DNA from: a virus | Reading direction: 5' to 3' (one strand) | DNA: 64,000 nucleotides | IMG/VR virus record: IMGVR_UViG_3300028392_000034 | Coordinates: 64,001 to 128,000 of that record | Part shown: positions 11,943-60,928 of the stretch, one piece after another | Layout of the letters: the number at the start of each line of letters is the position of its first letter | Position numbering within the stretch: position 1 is the first letter of the stretch | Notes under the pieces: generated by a model | What the model was told of the DNA's origin: nothing | The model's input: the letters and a program-made list of their open reading frames with translations, nothing else | Databases searched by the model: none | Translations under genes and position numbers: made by a program

Positions 11943-12536
11943 ATGTCAAATTTAGTGCCAATTGTAGTAGAAAAAACCGCCAATGGAGAACGCAGTTACG
12001 ATATATACAGTAGACTCCTGCGTGATAGAATTGTCATGCTGGACACAGATGTTAACGAACACACAGCCAGTTTGGTTGTGGCTCAGATGCTGTTTTTAGA
12101 AAGCGAAGATCCGGACCGGGACATCCTATTTTACATCAACAGTCCAGGCGGTGTAGTCACAGCAGGCATGGCGATTTACGATACCATGCAGTTTATCAAA
12201 CCCGATGTCAGCACAGTTGTCATGGGTCAGGCTTGTAGTATGGGCAGCCTATTGGCACAAGCTGGTGCTGCAGGCAAACGATTAATTTTGCCCAATGCAC
12301 GTCATATGATTCACCAACCATCTGGGGGTGCCAGAGGACAAGCAACAGACATGCTGATTCAAGTTGAAGAGATTCTAGCTATGAAGAAAAATCTAACTGA
12401 GATCTATGTTCGACACAACACAGCCGGCAAAACTTTTGAAGAGCTAACTACAGATATGGAACGAGATAACTTTATGAGTGCCGAACAAGCAGTGGCCTAT
12501 GGTCTTGCAGACAAGATAGTTACCAAGAGAGATTAA
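11943..12536 (+). CDS. clpP: ATP-dependent Clp protease proteolytic subunit
   Basis: [21 protein letters not shown] (catalytic Ser), MIHQP, ERDNFM. Confidence 0.97.
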
Positions 12537-13780
12537 TGGCCTTATCTGATACTTTTTGTTCAGCTCCGTGGTTCCAAACTAGAATTGATTGGGATGGTCA
12601 TTACAGACCCTGTTGCGGACTAACAGAAAACGCTAGCGAGTTTGAAGGTCGAACCCAATACTCAATAAAAGACACCACCGTGGATGAATGGATGTCTAGC
12701 GAGTATTCACAGTATCTAAGAAAAAATTTAACAGAAGGTATACAGCTAAAAGAATGCAATAATTGTTGGCAAAAAGAAAAACACAATGTCAAAAGTTTTA
12801 GACATGATGCTAACAATATTGTTACTAAAAATCAAAATAGCAATCTTGACAATACCTGGGTCAAACTTTTTGTAGACAAAAATCAAAATTATCAAAATTA
12901 TCAGATAGTATCAGCTGATGTCAAATTGTCAAATGTTTGCAATTTTAGCTGTGCTATGTGTTCGCCATTTAACAGTTCAAAAGTGTATGACAAATGGCAA
13001 TCTAATTTAGATAATAAATTTGTGCAAGAACGTTTACTACAGCAACCAACGTTTTTAAAAGATATTGCATCGACTTATCAAAGTAAACGGGGATATCAAC
13101 ATCTTAAAGATATATTAAAACATCCGTTGAGATATCTTAAAGTGCTTGGCGGCGAACCAACATTAGATAAAGACTTATTTCGTGTAGTAGATCAAGTACC
13201 AATTGACAAGAAATCAAAAATACATATAGAGCTAGTTACCAATGGCAGTCAAGATCTAATAGAAATTTCTAACCGATTACAAGATTACGGATCAGTAAGT
13301 TACACAATCAGCCTTGAAGGCGTTGGAGACATACAAGATTATGTGCGTAAAGGAAGCCACTGGCCTACCATTGAAAAAAATATATTGGCCGCAAAACAGA
13401 ATGGCATACACGTCAATGTTAATTATACTATACAGGCCATGTCGGTGTTAAATTTACATGAATTATTAAAATGGTGTTCCAATAATCAAATACCGATATC
13501 GTTTGGTGTATTAGATTATCCAGGTCATCTTGCTGTGTCAGTATTGCCCAAAAAAATTCGAAACAGTATTGTTGATAATTTACGCAAAAGTTCAGGTGTT
13601 GACGTTATAAATTCTCCAGACAGTACCGATCTATTGTCAATTGATAAGATAATTGAGTTAATTGACACTATCCCGGATCAGTCTGAACTTTACCCAAAAT
13701 TTCTTGAATATGTGGCATGGTTTGATCAGGACTCGATTCAACCGCTACGTGATATACAACCTTTGCTATATTATGTTTAA
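12536..13780 (+). CDS. Radical SAM protein with N-terminal SPASM/twitch-like domain
   Basis: CNFSCAMC, GGEP and TNG motifs; N-terminal FCSAPW...PCC...CNNC. Confidence 0.88.
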   Translation: MALSDTFCSAPWFQTRIDWDGHYRPCCGLTENASEFEGRTQYSIKDTTVDEWMSSEYSQYLRKNLTEGIQLKECNNCWQKEKHNVKSFRHDANNIVTKNQNSNLDNTWVKLFVDKNQNYQNYQIVSADVKLSNVCNFSCAMCSPFNSSKVYDKWQSNLDNKFVQERLLQQPTFLKDIASTYQSKRGYQHLKDILKHPLRYLKVLGGEPTLDKDLFRVVDQVPIDKKSKIHIELVTNGSQDLIEISNRLQDYGSVSYTISLEGVGDIQDYVRKGSHWPTIEKNILAAKQNGIHVNVNYTIQAMSVLNLHELLKWCSNNQIPISFGVLDYPGHLAVSVLPKKIRNSIVDNLRKSSGVDVINSPDSTDLLSIDKIIELIDTIPDQSELYPKFLEYVAWFDQDSIQPLRDIQPLLYYV

Positions 13781-17323: not shown

Positions 17324-17676
17324 AAGTATTCCAAGAAACCACAGAGTGGGGCATTCCAGGTGCTAAAAATCACATCTACTTTTTGTCGGATTCAAAGGAC
17401 AAGATGTATGCTTACATCAATAAGGAAGGTCGCATTGACGAAGTAAAGACGCCTTACCGATTCCATATCAAGGGCCGTAAATTTAAAGAAGTTGCCAACA
17501 CCTGGGGATTCTTTCCTAGAGAAGAATTAGAGTCAGTTGGAGAAACTCATCGGGTTGCAGGTAGCAAGGGTTCTGTTTATACAGTTACAAACGATCGTGG
17601 ATCGTGGACTTGCACTTGCCCGGCTTCAAAATGGCAAAAGGGCGACTGCAAACATATCGTGCAGTTAAAAGGTTAA
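17320..17676 (+). CDS. SWIM zinc-finger protein
   Basis: GSKGSVYTV...CTCP...CKH. Confidence 0.8.
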   Translation: MKVFQETTEWGIPGAKNHIYFLSDSKDKMYAYINKEGRIDEVKTPYRFHIKGRKFKEVANTWGFFPREELESVGETHRVAGSKGSVYTVTNDRGSWTCTCPASKWQKGDCKHIVQLKG

Positions 17677-18794
17677 GGTCGGGTTATCAAATGCAAGAAT
17701 TCAGGCCGAGATTTTCTTATGGTTTGATCCAGGTTTGATATACACACCTGCCGCTCACACACAACAGACTGGTTTAAAAACGCAATTTTGGAACCCAGTT
17801 GTCCAATAGGTCCGCCATTCTGACAAGGACCGCGATACACTAGACCGTCGAAATCCAAAAATAAACTGTCTACACCAACAAAACAGCGCCAGCCATGAAA
17901 TTGATTAGCATTGTTGGATACCATAGTATCTGAGTTGGTTTCTGTGTAGTTGAGATCTTGGTCCCAGACGCCGATGTTTTGCCAAGCCGTGGCCGGTATA
18001 TGGGTCGCAAGCCAGTCAAGTTCGTCAGCAGTGTAGAATGTTTCTTCGGCATACACTTGGTAGAGTCGACGATCCAACGTATCTTTTTCTAATTTTTTAT
18101 GTTGTGTTTGTTGTTCTAGGGTGTATACTTGTTTGAGTATTTCCTTTTTGGGTGTAGTTTGCCACTCTTCGTGGGTTTCATTCAACCATGGTCGTATACG
18201 CCTCAGTGTAAATTTTATACCATTTGATTCCAGTATTGGCATCACAACGTTTTCAACAAACTGTAGTTTTCCCGGCGCACACATGACCTGCACACTGATC
18301 CAATGTTCGGGGTATTTGTGATGCAGTTCGATAATTTTATGTAGAGTTGTCTGTGTTTCAGCTTCGGGTTTTTCTAAGTGCAAACTCACAGTTAGGTGAG
18401 TTAGATATTCCAGCGATTGTTTGTATAATTTCAACGGCATAGATCCATTGGTTATTGCCGACAGTTGATCACCAAATGCTGTGGCCTGATGAATTGTTCG
18501 GAGTATCTCCAGTATGTCAGGATGCACAAATGGTTCACCACCGGTTATGCTCATGTTGAATGTTTTGTTCTGCAAAGCAGCCCAGTCATTTACTTGGCCA
18601 ACAAAATTTCTTATGTGATCGATTGGGTGATGTGGGCTTACCCAGTCATGCACATACGGGCTACAATAACTACAATCGTAATTGCACCTCTTGCCTAGAT
18701 TCCAATTGACCAGAACCACTTGAGGTTCAATGTTGTTGGCGTGATGCTCGCTGCGGAGACTACGCAAGGCCACTAGATTTTTTTCCCAAGTCAT
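17673..18794 (-). CDS. Radical SAM protein
   Basis: CNYDCSYC, TGGEP, TNGS and C-terminal Cys cluster. Confidence 0.9.
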   Translation of the reverse strand: MTWEKNLVALRSLRSEHHANNIEPQVVLVNWNLGKRCNYDCSYCSPYVHDWVSPHHPIDHIRNFVGQVNDWAALQNKTFNMSITGGEPFVHPDILEILRTIHQATAFGDQLSAITNGSMPLKLYKQSLEYLTHLTVSLHLEKPEAETQTTLHKIIELHHKYPEHWISVQVMCAPGKLQFVENVVMPILESNGIKFTLRRIRPWLNETHEEWQTTPKKEILKQVYTLEQQTQHKKLEKDTLDRRLYQVYAEETFYTADELDWLATHIPATAWQNIGVWDQDLNYTETNSDTMVSNNANQFHGWRCFVGVDSLFLDFDGLVYRGPCQNGGPIGQLGSKIAFLNQSVVCERQVCISNLDQTIRKSRPEFLHLITRP

Positions 18795-47961: not shown

Positions 47962-50019
47962 ATGACCCAACAAGTTATCCAAGTAGGAGCCGAACCAAAT
48001 GACGGGCAGGGCACCCCTTTACGCAACTCTTTTATCATTACCAATGAAAATTTTACAGAACTTTATGCTCGTGCCCAGGTCTCTCCTCCTACTACTTTAG
48101 TTGGACAGATAGGTGATCAAGCCGGTTGGTATGCCTACGACAGCACGTATTTTTACTATTGCTTTGCAGATTATGATGGAACCAGTGTTATTTGGGCACA
48201 GATAAGTCAAATTGGCAATGTAACCGTTACTACCATTCAAAATGGAACCAGTAATGTAGCCATTACCAACATCAATGGTAATGTAATTACTGGAGTCAGC
48301 GGATTCTCAAATGTTGTAACGGTTGCTGCCACTGGACAATATGTTCAAGGTGTTGTTAGTGCTCTTGGCAATGTCACTGGCAGTTACATTTTAGGCAACG
48401 GTAGTCAATTAACTGGGCTTCCAGCAACTTACACCAATTCAAATGTTACCACATTGTTGGCCACATTTGGATCAAATACAATTTCGTCCACTGGTAATAT
48501 TACCAGTGGTAATCTAAGTGTAACTAATAATAGTGTTACTGTCGGCAATGTCACAGGTGGAAATTTAACCACTGGTGGGCAAGTTAGTGCCACTGGCAAC
48601 ATTGTAACAGATCAATATTTTGTTGGCAACTTTTTTGGTAACATCACCGGTAACTTTGTAGTCCCTGGCAGCAATACTCAAGTTATATTCAATACCAACG
48701 GCAATGCTGATGCCGTCGCCGGTATGACTTTTAACAGAGATTCTAACACATTTATAGTATTAGGAGTTGTAAGTAGCCAAGGTAATGTTATAAGTGGAAA
48801 CTTGACCACTGGTGGTCAAGTAAGTGCCACTGGCAATGTCAGAGGTGGCAATGTATTGACCACTGGTGTGATCAGTGCTACCGGGAATGCCACAGTTGGT
48901 AATATCAGTGCTACAAATTACACCGGAACCGCAGTCAGTGTCACGGGCAATGTAACAAGTGCTAATGTATCAACTGGCGGTGTGGTCAGCGCCACAGGTA
49001 ATGTCAGTTCTGCAGGCAATGTTTCGGGCAATTATCTTCGTGCTACCCTTGACGTCAATGCCGGCGGAAATGTATCGGCTACTGCACATACCGGAACCGC
49101 AGTCAATGTCACTGGCAACATAACAGGTGGCAATGTATTAACTGGTGGACAAGTAAGTGCTGTTGGCAACATAACTGGTAACTATTTTGTTGGTAACGGA
49201 TCTGCACTAACCGGCGTCAGCAATTATGGCGACAGCAATGTCAACACACTGCTGGCCGCGTGGGGGTCCAATACAGTATTAACCACTGGCACAATCACAG
49301 CCGGCAATGTAACAGGTGGCAATGTATTAACTGGTGGATTGGTAAGTGCTGTTGGCAACATAACTGGTGGCAACGTAGTAACAGGTGGATTGGTAAGTGC
49401 TGTTGGCAACATAACTGGTAACTATTTTGTTGGTAACGGATCTGCACTAACTGGTGTGATTGCCACTGGAATTGGCACCATTGGCTCGTTGAGTGTAACC
49501 GGCAACATAACAGCTGGCAATATAACCGTGTCAACTGGCACTGTATCAGTGGGCAGCATAACAAACAACAACAGCAACGCCGTTGGCAATATTGGTAGTT
49601 CGAGCAGCTATTTTAACACTGTGTTTGCTAAAGCCACTAGTGCTCAATATGCTGACTTGGCTGAAAATTATCTAGCTGACACAGATTACACACCAGGCAC
49701 TGTGGTTGTGTTTGGTGGCGAGCAAGAAATAACTATCAGCACCGACGTTGCTGATGAACGGGTAGCTGGTGCAATATCTACCAATCCGGCGCATTTAATG
49801 AATGCCGCCATGCCAGGATTACCAGTGGCATTGCGTGGACGAGTGCCGGTCAATGTCGTTGGGTCTGTAGTTAAGGGTGACAGTCTGGTAACCAGTTCGA
49901 CTGCAGGACATGCTCAAAGCGTTGGCCGCAGTCGTTTATATGGACAGGCTGTGTTTGCCAAGGCTCTTGAAACCAATCTTGAGGACGGCAAAAAAGTTAT
50001 TATCGCTGTTATAATTTAA
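47962..50019 (+). CDS. Tail fibre/spike protein with GNVTGGN repeats and C-terminal intramolecular-chaperone-like domain
   Basis: QQVIQVGAEPNDGQGTPLR; 17-aa repeats; SAQYADLAENY...ALRGRVP. Confidence 0.85.
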   Translation: MTQQVIQVGAEPNDGQGTPLRNSFIITNENFTELYARAQVSPPTTLVGQIGDQAGWYAYDSTYFYYCFADYDGTSVIWAQISQIGNVTVTTIQNGTSNVAITNINGNVITGVSGFSNVVTVAATGQYVQGVVSALGNVTGSYILGNGSQLTGLPATYTNSNVTTLLATFGSNTISSTGNITSGNLSVTNNSVTVGNVTGGNLTTGGQVSATGNIVTDQYFVGNFFGNITGNFVVPGSNTQVIFNTNGNADAVAGMTFNRDSNTFIVLGVVSSQGNVISGNLTTGGQVSATGNVRGGNVLTTGVISATGNATVGNISATNYTGTAVSVTGNVTSANVSTGGVVSATGNVSSAGNVSGNYLRATLDVNAGGNVSATAHTGTAVNVTGNITGGNVLTGGQVSAVGNITGNYFVGNGSALTGVSNYGDSNVNTLLAAWGSNTVLTTGTITAGNVTGGNVLTGGLVSAVGNITGGNVVTGGLVSAVGNITGNYFVGNGSALTGVIATGIGTIGSLSVTGNITAGNITVSTGTVSVGSITNNNSNAVGNIGSSSSYFNTVFAKATSAQYADLAENYLADTDYTPGTVVVFGGEQEITISTDVADERVAGAISTNPAHLMNAAMPGLPVALRGRVPVNVVGSVVKGDSLVTSSTAGHAQSVGRSRLYGQAVFAKALETNLEDGKKVIIAVII
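49153..49451 (+). repeat. Intragenic near-exact repeats in the tail fibre gene
   Basis: GTAAGTGCTGTTGGCAACATAACTGGTAACTATTTTGTTGGTAACGGATCTGCACTAAC at 49153 and 49393; partial copy at ~49342. Confidence 0.8.
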
Positions 50020-52486: not shown

Positions 52487-53542
52487 ATGACAGTTCCATT
52501 CACATTCGGCACAGAATCCAGCCCAATTCCATTAAGTCAGCTAGATGCAAATTTTGCTGCCCCAATAGCATTTGCCAACACAGCAGGCAATGTTGCCAAT
52601 GCTGCACAGCCAAATATTACCAGTGTTGGCACGTTGACTTCGTTGTCAGTCGCTGGCAATGTCACAGGTGGGAACTTGGTAACCAATGGCGCTGTATCAA
52701 TCACTGGTAATATTGCAGTAGGCAACATTGCCACCGGCGGGCGTGTCAGTGCTACAGGCAATGTTACAGGTGGTAACTTATTAACAGCTGGATCGATTAG
52801 TGCCACCGGCAATGCCACTGTTGGCAACATATCAGTCACAGGTATCTTAGGCCTTGGTTCAACTGCGTCAATTACTGGTAATGTCAATGCTGGCGGAAAC
52901 ATAACTTCCACTGGTGATATCAGCACTCAAGGTAATGTGCTGGCACAAGGTATTGTGTCAGCCACTGGTAACATTGTGACTGCTGGCAAGTTTGTGGGAG
53001 CTTTTCAGGGCAGCATTGTTGGAAACATCACAGGTGCACCTGGATCAACTTCGCAAGTTTTATTCAATACCTCTGGCAACGTTGATGCTGTTGGCGGATT
53101 GACCTATAACAAAGGATCTAATGCATTGGGTGTGCTAGGTACAATATCAGCACAGGGCAATATTACTACGGGTGGTAATTTATCAGTGGCGGCTAATGTA
53201 TCAGTTACTGGTACAACTCAATTGGTTGGAATAGCTACAGCACCAACAGCATCAACTGGCACAAACAACAATCAAGTGGCCACCGCGGCTTTTGTTAACA
53301 ATCAAATAACTGCCTTCCAAAGTGCCAGTCTGGGAACTATGTCTAGCCAAAATGCCAATGCTGTTTCAATCACCGGTGGCGCCATTGGCAATGTGTCAGC
53401 AGTTGGTTTATCTGGCGGCTGGTCTATAACTCCTAGTGGAAATACATTGTTTTTTAGTTTTAGCGGAAGTAATATTGCTAAGTTAGATTCAAGTGGCAAC
53501 TTTACCACCATCGGCAATATAACTGGATCTGGAACCTTGTAA
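52487..53542 (+). CDS. Tail fibre-like protein
   Basis: AQPNITSVGTLTSL and GNV/IT repeats; APTA...ATAAFV. Confidence 0.8.
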   Translation: MTVPFTFGTESSPIPLSQLDANFAAPIAFANTAGNVANAAQPNITSVGTLTSLSVAGNVTGGNLVTNGAVSITGNIAVGNIATGGRVSATGNVTGGNLLTAGSISATGNATVGNISVTGILGLGSTASITGNVNAGGNITSTGDISTQGNVLAQGIVSATGNIVTAGKFVGAFQGSIVGNITGAPGSTSQVLFNTSGNVDAVGGLTYNKGSNALGVLGTISAQGNITTGGNLSVAANVSVTGTTQLVGIATAPTASTGTNNNQVATAAFVNNQITAFQSASLGTMSSQNANAVSITGGAIGNVSAVGLSGGWSITPSGNTLFFSFSGSNIAKLDSSGNFTTIGNITGSGTL

Positions 53543-54480
53543 TGACTTTGCCTACTTCAGGACCTATAAGTCTCGTTGACATACAGGCAGAGTTTGGCGG
53601 CCCAACACCAATCAAGTTAGAGAATTATTATCGTGGTGGTGCCTATGTGCTAGACACTGATTATGCACCAAATGTACCAGCGTCGGGTCCTATTAGCCTT
53701 GGCGATTTTTATGGAGCTAAACGCACAGGATTAACTACTGTTAGTTTTAATAATGTGGGAAGTAATTTTATAATTCTTCCAGCAACTTTTTCTGGTAATT
53801 TGACCATTGTTACAATGACTGGTGGTGGAGGTGGTGGAGGTGGCCCAGACAGCCAGCCAGGGCGAGTAGGGTATCCTGGATTAACTATCACCGGTGGAAA
53901 TATACCTGCAAGCCCAGGAGATGTAATCAACGCCTATGTTGGAGGCGGAGGTGGCGCAGGTGGATCCGGCGGCGGCGGTGGCGGTGGGGGTGGCAAGATT
54001 ATTTGCACCAAACTATATGAACTTGGACTAATGAGCAAAGAAATATATCTTGCAGATCAAGCATTTGGTGCAGAGTTAGTTAAATCTCATCCAGATATCT
54101 ACAATGGTTATCGCGCCTGGGCTGAAATAGTAGTGGACTGGATGGACGGACGCGGACCTAAAATGATGCCTTGGATGTCAGATGAAGATTTTAGCAATGC
54201 TGCCCGGTCTTGGTCTACTCGATGGGCACAAGCTATTGCTACACCGTGGGCCGAAGAAATGGCCTATCAAATGTCAGAAAGTATGTTGCCCAACAATACA
54301 GGTAAAGCCATTATGGCCATCGGAACACCGATATGTAAAATAGTCGGTGTATGGCAACGAGTCGTTGGGCCAAGCAACAAACCAGCTGGATTTGGAAAAG
54401 GGTTGATGTTGATTCCTGTATTTGTCTTACTTAAACTTGTAGCCGAACTAGGACGATTGATTGAAGGAAAAAAACCATGA
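53542..54480 (+). CDS. Gly-rich adhesin N-terminal half fused to a GGGKIICT domain
   Basis: MTLPTSGPISL.DI..EFGG...SGPISLGDFYG; poly-Gly; KIICTKLYELG...GY. Confidence 0.75.
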   Translation: MTLPTSGPISLVDIQAEFGGPTPIKLENYYRGGAYVLDTDYAPNVPASGPISLGDFYGAKRTGLTTVSFNNVGSNFIILPATFSGNLTIVTMTGGGGGGGGPDSQPGRVGYPGLTITGGNIPASPGDVINAYVGGGGGAGGSGGGGGGGGGKIICTKLYELGLMSKEIYLADQAFGAELVKSHPDIYNGYRAWAEIVVDWMDGRGPKMMPWMSDEDFSNAARSWSTRWAQAIATPWAEEMAYQMSESMLPNNTGKAIMAIGTPICKIVGVWQRVVGPSNKPAGFGKGLMLIPVFVLLKLVAELGRLIEGKKP

Positions 54481-54677
54481 TAGATCTATTAACACAAAAT
54501 ATATTAACTTTAAACAAAACAGATCAGGCCCAAGTGTTTCGCATGTTGTCCGACAATGCTGATGTTCTGATAAAAGTGATACCAAACGCACCCTTATTGG
54601 TCAGTATCATAAGCGGTATGCCGGTTGACGATAGTCCAATTATTCAAGCCTACACCGCTTGGAAACATAGTTTGTAG
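54477..54677 (+). CDS. Small hypothetical protein
   Basis: ATGA-coupled, AAGGA SD. Confidence 0.55.
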   Translation: MIDLLTQNILTLNKTDQAQVFRMLSDNADVLIKVIPNAPLLVSIISGMPVDDSPIIQAYTAWKHSL

Positions 54678-54685
54678 GAAAAAAT

Positions 54686-55132
54686 ATGGCCATTACAGAT
54701 TATTACGGGGGGTTAGGTGGAAGTTTTGGGGGCTCTGGATATAGCGGAGGGGGTGGCGGTGGCGGTGCCGCTTCGGTAGTTTCTGTAAACACCGTAATAC
54801 TAGCTGTGGCCGGTGGTGGTGGTGGCGGGGGCGGTGGCGGGCAGTATAGTGCTGGCCTCCCCAATCAAAACACTCCGGGTAATGCTGGTACCACATATGG
54901 TGGGTATGGGCAAGGCAAAGGCAGCGGAGACGGCGCAGGTGGAGGTGGTGGAGGTGGTGGCCAATTTGGTGGTGCAGGTGGACTTGTGACCGGTGGCGAC
55001 AATGGCGCATACTCTGGAGAAAACGGCAATTGTTTAGTGCCCACCGGTGGTGTTGTATCTGCTGGATCAAATGGCGGCAGCATTAATAGTGCAGGTGCCC
55101 AAGGAATTGTAACTTTAAGTTATTATTCTTAG
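54686..55132 (+). CDS. Gly-rich adhesin C-terminal half
   Basis: GGGGGGGAASVV...LAVAGGGGGGGGGG...GAQGIVTLSY. Confidence 0.75.
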   Translation: MAITDYYGGLGGSFGGSGYSGGGGGGGAASVVSVNTVILAVAGGGGGGGGGGQYSAGLPNQNTPGNAGTTYGGYGQGKGSGDGAGGGGGGGGQFGGAGGLVTGGDNGAYSGENGNCLVPTGGVVSAGSNGGSINSAGAQGIVTLSYYS

Positions 55133-55178
55133 CCTTATTAGAGTTTGATAAATATTATAGGATAAATTAGGAATACAT

Positions 55179-56087
55179 ATGACAAGTGCAATTAACCCAA
55201 ACAACATTAACGGTGCTTACCCAGTAGCCGGGCAGGACAATAATTCGCAAGGATTCCGTGATAATTTCACAAATACCTCTACGAACTTTCAATATGCAGC
55301 TGACGAAATTTCAGATCTGCAAAGCAAAGCAGTGTTAAAAGCAGCATTAACTGGAACTACACTTGACAACGATATGTTGGGCAGTCCTTTATCCAATGCA
55401 CTATTATCTAACATGAGCGAAAATGTAGTTGTGTTAAACACAGTGAGCGGAACAACTGTTATCAACTATGCCTTGGCCAGTTATCAAACCCTAACAACCA
55501 ACGGTGCTGTAAGTCTAAGTTTTACTAATTTTCCAGCAGCTGGAGCGGCCGCATCTGTAGTGGTTCAAGTCACAGTGGCCAGCACAATTCATACACTGGT
55601 ATTGCCGGCCGCAGTCACAGTAAACAACACAGGAATACAAGGTCTTAATACTTCAACCAATACTATTTCGTTTGCTGCCACTGGTGTTTATAGTTTTGAA
55701 TTTTCAACCAGCAATGGTGGAAGTACCATTACAGTTAGAGAAGTTAACAAAGTGTTACAGCCATTCAACAACAGCAGTGAAAATTTAACCGACACTGCAA
55801 ACGTTAATGCAGCAGTAACTACCAGTTATTTCAGCACAGTCACTTCTACTACAGCTCAATTGCTTGCAGGTGTTCCTGGACAAATTAAAACTTTGGCCAT
55901 GTATTCAGCTTCGGGCAACATGAGAATCACTGTTTCCAATGCCGGATGGAAAACTTCAGGCACCGGAAATATCCTATTCACTGCAACTGGCCAGGCCTGC
56001 ACACTACAATATATCAACAGCAATGTGGCCAACATAGCTCAAAGCAAATGGTTCTGTATTGGCAACAACGGCGCCACATTTAGCTAA
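55179..56087 (+). CDS. Structural (tail/baseplate-associated) protein
   Basis: YPVAGQDNNSQGFRDNF N-terminus; Thr/Asn-rich; TAAATA upstream. Confidence 0.7.
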   Translation: MTSAINPNNINGAYPVAGQDNNSQGFRDNFTNTSTNFQYAADEISDLQSKAVLKAALTGTTLDNDMLGSPLSNALLSNMSENVVVLNTVSGTTVINYALASYQTLTTNGAVSLSFTNFPAAGAAASVVVQVTVASTIHTLVLPAAVTVNNTGIQGLNTSTNTISFAATGVYSFEFSTSNGGSTITVREVNKVLQPFNNSSENLTDTANVNAAVTTSYFSTVTSTTAQLLAGVPGQIKTLAMYSASGNMRITVSNAGWKTSGTGNILFTATGQACTLQYINSNVANIAQSKWFCIGNNGATFS

Positions 56088-56354: not shown

Positions 56355-56962
56355 ACGTTAGACTTAAACACGACATACAATTTACCGCGGGCATATACCA
56401 TGACAATAAACTGATCATGAACAACTACACTCTTAGATTGTGGATGACCACCAACAGTGAAAATTCTGTTGACCAAAGTATTTCATTTGAACGAATTAAG
56501 TATTTTGTCTACACTCAAATCGACAATACTATTTTTATCAACAGTAACCAAAAAGCACAATGCACTCTTTTTTCCAAAGCTGGGCTCGATATTACAACCA
56601 TGCCAAATGATCCTGTTGACCAATTGGTAGGAATAATGTTATACTACAAGTTAAATGCCATTACAGAAGATCGTATGATTATTATGGAAACTGAAATATC
56701 CAGCACATACGGTGCTAATATGACGTATCTACATTCTGATTTTGAAAACACTTCTGGATTCAAACAACCCGACTGGTGGACTAGTCCCGACTTAGCTCAC
56801 AGTGATTTTGTGCTCGCTAATAAATCTGAAAAAGTATTATCTATACCAACCAGCACAGATTGGAGAGAGTTGGAATTGGCCTGGTCCGACGAACCTGCAG
56901 CAAACTCTCCAGGAAATGTTGTAGTGTTTGCAGATTTTAAACAGCCCAATGAAACAAAATAA
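56351..56962 (+). CDS. Hypothetical protein
   Basis: 203 aa, ATGA-coupled. Confidence 0.7.
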   Translation: MNVRLKHDIQFTAGIYHDNKLIMNNYTLRLWMTTNSENSVDQSISFERIKYFVYTQIDNTIFINSNQKAQCTLFSKAGLDITTMPNDPVDQLVGIMLYYKLNAITEDRMIIMETEISSTYGANMTYLHSDFENTSGFKQPDWWTSPDLAHSDFVLANKSEKVLSIPTSTDWRELELAWSDEPAANSPGNVVVFADFKQPNETK

Positions 56963-57470
56963 ATTCGGTGAACTAGTATTTTCAGAAGATGACATTTGTG
57001 ACTTGTTGATGCAAGGGCGCACTGTCGATTCTTTACAACGCATGACAGTTGATGAAACGGTTGATCTTGAAAATTTAGTCGGGCTGATTGAAAAGCCAGA
57101 ATCATTGTTTCGTTGGAGCTTCCCTCATAACAGCGACATAGCAGTTCCAGAGTTTCATTTGACACAACAAAATAGTTGGCACATGCCTGCGGAATATAAG
57201 CAGTTGGATATTGCAGAACATATACTTGGACTTTGTAAATCTGAAGCTGAACTACAGCGATGCGGGGAAGAATTATTGCTATTCCAAGAACGCAATCTGT
57301 TTGACCTGTTACGATATTTAAAATATCTAGTGGATGTTATGACCATTAATTGTGTCATTTGGGGAGTAGGACGTGGATCGAGTGTGGCCAGTTATGTTTT
57401 ATACAAATTGGGCGTTCATCGAATTGACAGCCTATTCTATAATTTAGACTGCCGTGAATTTCTGCGTTAA
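56949..57470 (+). CDS. dnaE: DNA polymerase III alpha subunit-like fragment
   Basis: R..EEL......L......Y.VD......WGVGRGSSVASYVLY.LG.H.ID. Confidence 0.8.
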   Translation: MKQNKFGELVFSEDDICDLLMQGRTVDSLQRMTVDETVDLENLVGLIEKPESLFRWSFPHNSDIAVPEFHLTQQNSWHMPAEYKQLDIAEHILGLCKSEAELQRCGEELLLFQERNLFDLLRYLKYLVDVMTINCVIWGVGRGSSVASYVLYKLGVHRIDSLFYNLDCREFLR

Positions 57471-59791: not shown

Positions 59792-60928
59792 ATGCCGGCA
59801 TATGAGGTTCTTGAACCTGCAATAGATCCCAACAATAGAATCTCTTTTCTATTGGATTGGGAACTCACAATGAAGTGTAATCTTGATTGTAGTTATTGTG
59901 ACTCAGGATTAAACGGAGGACACGATAACTCTACCAAACATCCTCCAAAAGACAAATGTATCCAAGCTCTAGAGTTTATGTTTGAATATGCGGATCAATA
60001 CATGCAATTCAAGCCTAATGGACTACGGTATGTTGTGCTCAATGTGTATGGTGGAGAAAGTTTACACCACCCTGATATAGTAGAAATATTATCTCAAATA
60101 CAACAAAAATATCAACCATACGCAGACCGTTGGAAATTAACAGTTACTACAACAACCAATGCCATAATATCCGATAAAAAATTATCAAAAATAATTCCTT
60201 ATATTGATGAATTCACCGTGAGTTCTCATGTGGAATGTACCGACCGTCAAAAACAACAGTTTAAACACAATCTATTGTCTATTAGAGACTCGGGTAAGAG
60301 ATTAAAATGTATTGTGATGCTGCATGATAATCCGCAACTATTTCAACAATCTCAAGATTTTTTATTATGGCTTGATGAAAATCAAATACGCTCATTGCCC
60401 AAACAAATCGACGGCGCCAGTTTAAATCAATCGTATGATCAACAACAAATAAAATGGTTTAATTCAATATATCAAAATAAAACATACGGAACAAAAATCT
60501 TTGAAATTATCAATACTGATGTTGGTGCGTCTTCCAATCTCAGTCAGGTCGGACGAGCCTGTTGTGGCGGCAGACAAAGTTGTCTAGATCAGAATTACAA
60601 GGAACGCCACTATTACGTTCTCGATAATAAATTTCCAGACTGGTATTGTAGTGTGAATCAATTTTTTCTTTTTATCAAACAGGTCAATGGAGAAGTATAT
60701 GTCAATAAAGATTGCAAAATGACATTTGATGGAACCGTTGGGCCAATTGGAAATTTAGATGAGCCTGACAAAATCATCAACCAACTAAAAACACAACTAA
60801 ATAACGGACAGCCTGTAATACAATGTAAAATACCCGTATGTCGTTGTGGTCTTTGCGCTCCTAAAGCGAAAAATCTAGACACATATCATTCAATCATAAA
60901 AAAATATCAAAAAAATCACATCACATGA
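59792..60928 (+). CDS. Radical SAM protein
   Basis: CNLDCSYC, GGE, TTN, C-terminal C...C.CG.CAPK. Confidence 0.88.
   Translation: MPAYEVLEPAIDPNNRISFLLDWELTMKCNLDCSYCDSGLNGGHDNSTKHPPKDKCIQALEFMFEYADQYMQFKPNGLRYVVLNVYGGESLHHPDIVEILSQIQQKYQPYADRWKLTVTTTTNAIISDKKLSKIIPYIDEFTVSSHVECTDRQKQQFKHNLLSIRDSGKRLKCIVMLHDNPQLFQQSQDFLLWLDENQIRSLPKQIDGASLNQSYDQQQIKWFNSIYQNKTYGTKIFEIINTDVGASSNLSQVGRACCGGRQSCLDQNYKERHYYVLDNKFPDWYCSVNQFFLFIKQVNGEVYVNKDCKMTFDGTVGPIGNLDEPDKIINQLKTQLNNGQPVIQCKIPVCRCGLCAPKAKNLDTYHSIIKKYQKNHIT

Follow-up and report, generated by a model that had tools for sequence, protein, structure and literature searches.

The stretch of DNA under study (the window) is 64,000 bases long and comprises bases 64001–128000 of the 148,970-base virus record IMGVR_UViG_3300028392_000034, which is judged to be 43% complete. 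The virus is a freshwater jumbo phage, a classification based on related contigs that reach 320–350 kb; no near relative was found among deposited phages. This work concerns three consecutive open reading frames (ORFs) on the + strand of the window, each in a different frame: ORF A (53542–54480; 312 amino acids, aa), ORF B (54477–54677; 66 aa) and ORF C (54686–55132; 148 aa). ORFs A and C carry the two pieces of a single glycine-rich adhesin domain, and between these pieces lies an unrelated helical domain, here called KIICT after its first residues. The split is located in a fibre module, since the upstream neighbour (52487–53542, +) is itself a fibre gene: its 351-aa product carries GN-x-TGGN repeats and matches the PHROG tail-fibre families phrog_7032 and phrog_6942. 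The gene is syntenic in a related locus, L010, and its stop overlaps the start of ORF A.

ORF A falls into two parts. The N-part (residues 1–151; 53542–53994, +) consists of an N-terminal domain and, from its alignment with residues 1–153 of the relative P0331 (see below), the first repeat unit of a TNF-like/glycine-rich domain. Residues 1 to ~60 belong to a widespread phage N-terminal domain (phrog_30374; motif ..SGPISL.DIQ.EFGG..YYRGG), and tblastn with residues 1–60/90 finds matches in many phages, beside fibre genes; this N-terminus is the attachment part of the protein. Residues ~61–151 are glycine-rich and end in a run of GGN codons (53941–53994, +; residues 134–151, G5-A-GG-S-G9), the left junction at which homology to alternative cassettes ends. 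At 53995, ORF A switches from this run to K-I-I-C-T and the unrelated domain (KIICT; 53995–54480, +; residues 152–312, 161 aa), which AlphaFold2 (AF2) models as a six-helix bundle. The glycine run directly precedes the KIICT start, placing the break within the GGN run, as originally predicted.

The start codon of ORF B overlaps the TGA stop of ORF A as ATGA, and ORF B is translationally coupled to ORF A via this overlap. ORF C has an initiation region of its own (54676–54688, +), in which a Shine-Dalgarno AGGA (54676–54679) stands six bases before the ATG and overlaps the TAG stop of ORF B. The AGGAAAAAA initiation region upstream of ORF B resembles that of ORF C (repeat D4). Coordinates and AGGA together bear out the predicted three-ORF layout, with ORF C in a different frame and equipped with its own Shine-Dalgarno sequence. 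Searches of ORFs A, B and C against Pfam, NCBIfam and PHROGs returned only phrog_30374, at the N-terminus of ORF A; ORF B is without a family match in all three. The ORF B family follows type-1 KIICT genes, in split and unsplit contexts alike.

One domain in two genes

A search with ORF C among longer proteins yielded two single-chain relatives, P0331 (316 aa) and P0332 (419 aa). ORF A residues 1–150 align with P0331 residues 1–153 (101/150 identical; Z 42.7), and ORF C residues 4–148 align with P0331 residues 157–316 (105 of 145 identical; Z 31.8), with alignment Z scores computed against composition-preserving shuffles. Only three residues separate the two aligned ranges of P0331, and so the A and C pieces abut; they abut on P0332 as well. 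When the record of the phage itself was searched in six frames with P0331, the same two abutting pieces came up and no further copy. Both glycine-rich halves align end to end on P0331 and are hence colinear with one protein. The original prediction is right in this central respect: one adhesin domain is encoded by two intact, translatable genes, and the ~0.7 kb between the two pieces encodes KIICT and a small ORF.

P0331 was modelled with AF2 on alignment A6, which contains fewer, trimmed N-part rows. The model is of moderate confidence (mean predicted local distance difference test score, pLDDT, 62.6), with confident strands in residues 65–140, 172–200 and 280–316 and poor regions in 146–171 and 209–275. 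High-confidence strands derive from both halves of the protein, and the low-confidence segment 146–171 surrounds the break. Structural comparison of residues 61–316 retrieved the fibre protein gp24 of cyanophage Pam3 (7ypx_A; Z 13.5, root-mean-square deviation 2.7, 157 residues aligned, 26% identity). The model also matched human ALK (7nx3_A; Z 13.0, 28% identity; Foldseek E 5e-5) and a tail-tip protein of mycobacteriophage Bxb1 (9d93_Qa; Z 12.0), while the next match after these three reached only Z 3.0. A single receptor-binding domain of the TNF-like plus glycine-rich type is distributed over the ORF A N-part and ORF C. The sandwich cannot be completed without strands from each ORF, and the two genes thus encode one split domain, not two domains. 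The glycine-rich part of ORF A makes up the first third of the domain and ORF C the rest, namely repeat unit 2 and the strands at the C-terminal end. When many N-part rows were included, MAFFT repeatedly placed ORF C residues 5–95 on ORF A residues 55–145, thereby revealing an internal repeat. The break is located at the terminal glycine run of repeat unit 1, from which we infer a position near the distal tip of a glycine-rich loop.

The Pfam family Gly_rich_2 (PF21722) gave no match on ORF A, ORF C or P0331 at E values of up to 1 or 0.01, probably owing to a composition filter. P0234, which has the same KIICT junction, scores 37.5 bits (cut-off 24.3) over profile positions 2–167 of 226, and P0072 and P0073, also with this junction, are precomputed Gly_rich_2 matches. 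By homology, the window domain is a Gly_rich_2-type member of unusual topology: rather than lying on one polypeptide, it is divided between ORF A residues 1–151 and ORF C.

Several simpler accounts of the discontinuity were examined. Misassembly is excluded by the recurrence of the A-B-C layout on many independent metagenome and IMG/VR contigs. Joining at the RNA level, including the splicing envisaged in the original prediction, was not borne out: no Rfam match, intron or otherwise, was obtained in 53400–55300 at E values of up to 1. Ribosomal bypass was set aside, as the ~700-nucleotide gap is fully coding and conserved. The ends of the insert do carry a 26-nucleotide inverted repeat (53991–54016 and 54667–54692; 77% complementary), a candidate for a terminal inverted repeat or long-range RNA pairing. 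Since duplex energies in nine related loci are no better than those of shuffled sequences, the repeat was treated as a chance occurrence.

KIICT is a conserved helical end-domain

KIICT is modelled by AF2 with high confidence (pLDDT 93.7). The domain begins with an invariant hydrophobic-hydrophobic-Cys motif and has a hydrophobic last helix, followed by basic residues. No match was obtained in Pfam or NCBIfam (E up to 1). In the PDB, a sequence-profile search came back empty and Foldseek, the fold search that had been suggested, gave nothing at E ≤ 0.001; BFVD returned only uncharacterised family members, and the ESM Atlas only unnamed viral clusters. The best structural match is to the NEL-type E3 ligase domain (SspH1/SlrP/IpaH), with weak scores (Z 6.4, 5.0 and 3.3) that lie below what is usually considered meaningful for helical bundles. 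No nuclease family was detected in KIICT or ORF B in Pfam, PHROG or NCBIfam, and a literature search on the KIICT domain, on PF21722 and on the combination of Hint and glycine-rich domains in phages produced nothing relevant. The initially suspected resemblance of the domain start to CFI-box-CTERM domains found no support: there is no NCBIfam or Pfam match, and KIICT is a six-helix bundle of 160 aa, not a short sorting signal.

Relatives of KIICT are numerous. A clustered database contains 376 at 75–95% identity, and an exhaustive search at E ≤ 0.001 recovered 780 clusters (50% identity), in host proteins of 69–1,859 aa. The domain lies within the last 200 residues in all 121 representatives that keep the boundary, preceded by a glycine run in 74, by Asn-Cys repeats in seven and by a Hint C-terminus (..H-N) in five. 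The Asn-Cys/KIICT architecture is present in the related loci examined; no Asn-Cys protein was found in the 64-kb window. KIICT also ends many unrelated fibre-region proteins, including non-adhesin-like ones of 1,400–1,800 aa. Two pattern scans of 185,579 prokaryotic species genomes found none, and within the sets searched KIICT occurs only in viruses. Among cultured phages, it was found only in Synechococcus phage SynMITS9220M01, which repeats the layout: gp028 (a glycine-rich domain, poly-Pro, poly-Arg and a KIICK domain) is followed by gp029 and by gp030, which starts M-A-K-A-G6. KIICT is a conserved, undescribed helical end-domain family.

In some relatives, a Hint module accompanies the domain. 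It stands directly before KIICT in P0200, P0234, P0245, P0255 and P0325, and at the same junction in P0135. The order in P0234 is a Gly_rich_2 match, a Hint module (a weak PT-HINT match) and KIICT. In locus L012, blastn homology to the window stops at 53994 and a Hint-type domain (G-V-C-F-T-A-D-S...) follows. The window KIICT itself, a six-helix bundle, has no Hint match; such modules occur in relatives only. Processing at the Gly/Cys junction, as had been suggested, thus receives indirect support from close relatives with Hint at the junction or between the glycine run and KIICT; ligation at this junction was not borne out.

The same fold is broken at two glycine-run sites

A second break site emerged from related loci. 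In L004, the fold extends in P0072 to the end of unit 2, where G6-KIICT takes over. A 67-aa homologue of ORF B comes next, followed by a gene whose product starts M-A-D-G10 and then supplies the final strands of the fold. L007 and L050 are also broken at the second site, with remainder genes downstream. KIICT thereby sits at two alternative, equivalent glycine-run sites (loop tips) of the same fold. As a separate observation, the protein that starts with the remainder in L007 (5465–7195) and L050 (4492–6165) itself ends in a partial glycine-rich domain plus KIICT, and is succeeded by another remainder gene; this chained arrangement makes one fibre module with two successive splits.

The pairing of glycine-rich pieces was assessed across 53 non-redundant KIICT genes in IMG/VR loci. 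Eight have both a glycine-rich upstream part and a downstream gene with a glycine-rich start, two have the upstream part only, none the downstream start only, and 43 have neither (Fisher p = 5e-8; four of the eight doubly glycine-rich loci are close kin of the window). In single-chain relatives, a domain of ~130 aa is inserted in frame, at site 1 in P0332 and at site 2 in P0327–P0330. Because in-frame inserts occur at both break sites, the glycine-run sites are structurally permissive. The inserted domain shows the motifs ..FLN.YGVW.. and ..Y.F.VSADN.. and has no Pfam match.

The split is old and the KIICT body is exchangeable

Ratios of non-synonymous to synonymous substitution rates (dN/dS) were measured against eight related loci, with dS of at least 0.8 for all pieces. 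Values are 0.04–0.16 for the N-part, 0.05–0.10 for KIICT, 0.14–0.25 for ORF B and 0.09–0.20 for ORF C (where dS is 1–1.9); all four pieces are under purifying selection. ORF C is 148–150 aa long in 11/11 related loci where it was found, and both its start and its ribosome site are conserved. All pieces of this long-standing split have been maintained. A tree of 134 N-parts contains 128 followed by KIICT type 1, three by type 2 (at least two origins), one by Hint (arising once) and two that are unsplit. The two single-chain forms lie apart on this tree, P0331 falling inside a clade of split forms with 100% support in the Shimodaira–Hasegawa-like approximate likelihood ratio test. Given dS values of at least 0.8 and a split in 132/134 relatives, the split in this lineage is old and nearly universal. 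These values, together with the nested position of P0331, do not fit a simple recent insertion, as first imagined. Pattern scans of IMG/VR and JGI metagenomes for the single-chain form returned split forms only.

The cassette has not been inherited strictly with its surroundings. In the syntenic locus L010 (~80% nucleotide identity), blastn homology breaks off at 54006 and is regained at 54465, the interval being occupied by another KIICT subtype; only the body of the KIICT domain has been replaced, and ORF B has been kept. Breakpoints were also located by blastn against L004. Across relatives, identities of the N-part and of KIICT are weakly correlated (Spearman 0.35), with pairs at 62%/94% and 81%/38%. 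The insert is flanked on either side by GGN-codon repeats of families D1 and D2. The poly-glycine junction is a recombination point, and the KIICT body has been exchanged several times for subtype 2 or for a Hint-type module.

Other features of the window

Elsewhere in the window, a second fibre protein with GN-x-TGGN repeats is encoded at 47962–50019 (+; 685 aa). Its C-terminal ~110 residues match phrog_22593 and the tail-fibre family phrog_19602 and include a ..YADLAENY.. stretch; this C-terminus recalls an autoprocessing or chaperone region of a kind other than KIICT. A 180-aa ORF at 56928–57470 (+) matches positions 22–94 of 260 of Pfam DNA_pol3_alpha just under the cut-off (E 5.6e-5). It is conserved in L010 and may be another gene in pieces, or a polymerase fragment. 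Three proteins with radical-SAM domains (PHROG matches) are encoded at 12536–13780 (+), 17673–18794 (-) and 59792–60928 (+).

Interpretation of the split

With both halves under purifying selection, the most parsimonious reading is a two-chain adhesin, as the original prediction proposed. We favour a version of it in which KIICT acts as a detachable assembly or anchoring module, the function of KIICT being a deduction from the comparisons below, and assign this reading a probability of roughly 0.55. The chains of the ORF A N-part and ORF C would fold together, forming a single adhesin domain at the fibre end, with ORF C supplying most of the receptor-contacting loops. KIICT would have to be C-terminal, so that recombination between GGN tracts, by placing it inside a gene, would force the rest of that gene to restart. 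With KIICT apparently confined to the C-terminus, whatever part of the glycine-rich fold lies beyond the insertion point is translated from a start of its own and has to fold jointly with the first piece. KIICT itself would be used during assembly, as a cis-acting cap, an oligomerisation aid or a membrane tether, and would then be removed from the mature fibre, by Hint where present and otherwise by a putative cleavage near G-K-I-I-C.

The idea of a detachable module draws on three observations: (i) Hint precedes KIICT in some relatives, (ii) KIICT is highly conserved across unrelated fibre proteins, and (iii) fold match and alignment place its attachment near the distal end of the domain, where the chaperone sits in Pam3. 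KIICT may play a part comparable to that of Pam3 gp25 and of C-terminal intramolecular chaperones.

A number of points weigh against the two-chain adhesin with a detachable KIICT. The association of the A and C chains is predicted from a P0331 model that is only moderate and whose N-half alignment is shallow. P0331 may represent a co-resident paralogue rather than an empty site, because the longest contig given for it, 18,772 bases, has the same length as that given for the split-type P0034. Removal of KIICT in the Hint-less majority, to which the window belongs, is a proposal made by analogy. KIICT has no detectable similarity to the Pam3 gp25, Tfa-type or Peptidase_S74 chaperones, by sequence or among the fold matches listed. 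Finally, many KIICT members end in a strongly hydrophobic segment that resembles a tail anchor, which a soluble cap would not need.

This last feature lies behind an unlikely alternative, in which a terminal transmembrane helix of KIICT tethers to the host inner membrane either the fibre precursor or, once Hint or a protease has released it, KIICT alone, the N-part being freed for the virion. Such a tether might serve assembly at the membrane, or some other purpose, for instance the exclusion of superinfecting phages or the timing of lysis. Most subtypes do end in a hydrophobic segment followed by basic residues, and the Hint modules before KIICT resemble the release modules of pre-toxins (the weak PT-HINT match of P0234). 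However, AF2 packs the last helix of the window KIICT into the bundle (pLDDT ~90), the hydrophobic tail is absent altogether in some members (P0274, P0280 and P0314), and we know of no precedent for membrane-anchored fibre precursors in tailed phages. Alternatively, KIICT could stay on the virion as a functional distal tip that interacts with the host surface or membrane, the split being a topological consequence only. Its attachment near the distal receptor-binding end, as placed by fold and alignment, and its invariably terminal position would suit such a role. We nevertheless consider it improbable: 75–95% conservation across phages with completely different fibre parts is unlike a receptor-binding tip, the Hint modules imply separation, and KIICT also terminates the large non-adhesin-like proteins.

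A different kind of explanation dispenses with a fibre function. KIICT, with or without the small gene, might be a selfish mobile cassette that spreads by recombination into GGN tracts and supplies a stop, a ribosome site and a start, letting the host gene live on in pieces, much as with the homing-endonuclease insertions in the topoisomerase of phage T4 or the NrdA of Aeromonas phage Aeh1. GGN tracts on both sides of the insert, exchange of the KIICT body independently of its flanks, occurrence of one and the same domain in widely differing host proteins and at two positions within a single fold, and the existence of single-chain forms would all follow. Nevertheless, Pfam, PHROG and NCBIfam reveal no nuclease, recombinase or transposase signature (and Rfam no intron), purifying selection is strong over saturated synonymous divergence, and the split is retained near-universally (132/134) in the lineage. 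In every case KIICT continues the upstream protein in frame, related loci do not share the inverted repeat found at the insert ends in the window, and L010 has exchanged the domain body without ORF B. The selection data and the lack of a nuclease or recombinase make a purely selfish cassette less likely, and we regard it as doubtful. Displaced 3' ends are common beside phage fibre genes, and ORF C could likewise be the decaying remnant of a 3' end pushed aside by a new C-terminal cassette, leaving only ORF A functional. This is scarcely credible here: it is contradicted by the conserved length, start and ribosome site of ORF C in 11/11 related loci and by its dN/dS of 0.09–0.20 at dS 1–1.9, and ORF A alone holds only part of the strands of the beta-sandwich. 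Very improbable, too, is an elaborate extension of the two-chain adhesin, whereby the G-K-hydrophobic-hydrophobic-Cys start would be a site of autoprocessing that needs no Hint module; KIICT would serve as a template on which the two chains fold together, then remove itself and perhaps join the poly-glycine C-terminus of A to the N-terminus of C, regenerating a single chain.

Comparison with known systems

Phage genes in pieces have precedents: the topoisomerase genes 39/60 of T4, with mobA, and nrdA of Aeromonas phage Aeh1, split by mobE. As in these cases, one protein is made as two polypeptides through inserted DNA, and the downstream piece has its own start. Whereas the inserts of T4 and Aeh1 are free-standing homing endonuclease genes, the insert described here encodes a conserved domain that is not a nuclease and continues the reading frame of the upstream piece. 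Selection on it is strong, and it turns up repeatedly at loop tips that are structurally equivalent.

Pam3 offers the closest structural comparison. The TNF-like beta-strands of gp24 extend into six glycine-rich loops, and receptor binding has been proposed for the variable distal tips of these loops; gp38 of Salmonella phage S16 is cited as a related adhesin (PMC9608196). The Pam3 fibre requires a chaperone with a helical trimerising domain, and the authors argue that this chaperone has to be released before virion maturation (PMC9608196). The window domain shares the TNF-like plus glycine-rich fold of gp24 (PDB 7YPX), which in Pam3 lies at the distal receptor-binding end of the fibre. The gene organisation differs: gp24 is a single chain with gp25 separate, whereas here two genes share the fold, and the first piece continues at a glycine loop into the helical domain. 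The ligand-binding region of ALK/LTK and S16 gp38 likewise display a polyglycine lattice on a beta scaffold, but each is a single chain, and no terminal domain interrupts a loop tip in any of them. Like C-terminal chaperone domains of the Peptidase_S74 type, KIICT is a promiscuous C-terminal module found across very different fibre proteins; and, as in Hint and bacterial intein-like processing, relatives place an autoprocessing Hint module at the same junction. Unlike either, KIICT is all-helical and bears neither an S74 nor a Hint signature, and any self-cleavage is hypothetical.

The polyglycine adhesin fold is a main host-range determinant in several phage groups and also forms the ligand-binding region of ALK. 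If the fold is indeed built from two gene products split at a glycine-rich loop, the locus would constitute a natural split-domain system for receptor-binding proteins, whose receptor-contacting half, being a gene of its own, could be exchanged independently, and it would show that glycine-rich loops are permissive for engineering. The function of KIICT, a large family with neither a Pfam entry nor a solved structure and sometimes preceded by Hint, represents a defined and testable gap in the knowledge of fibre assembly.

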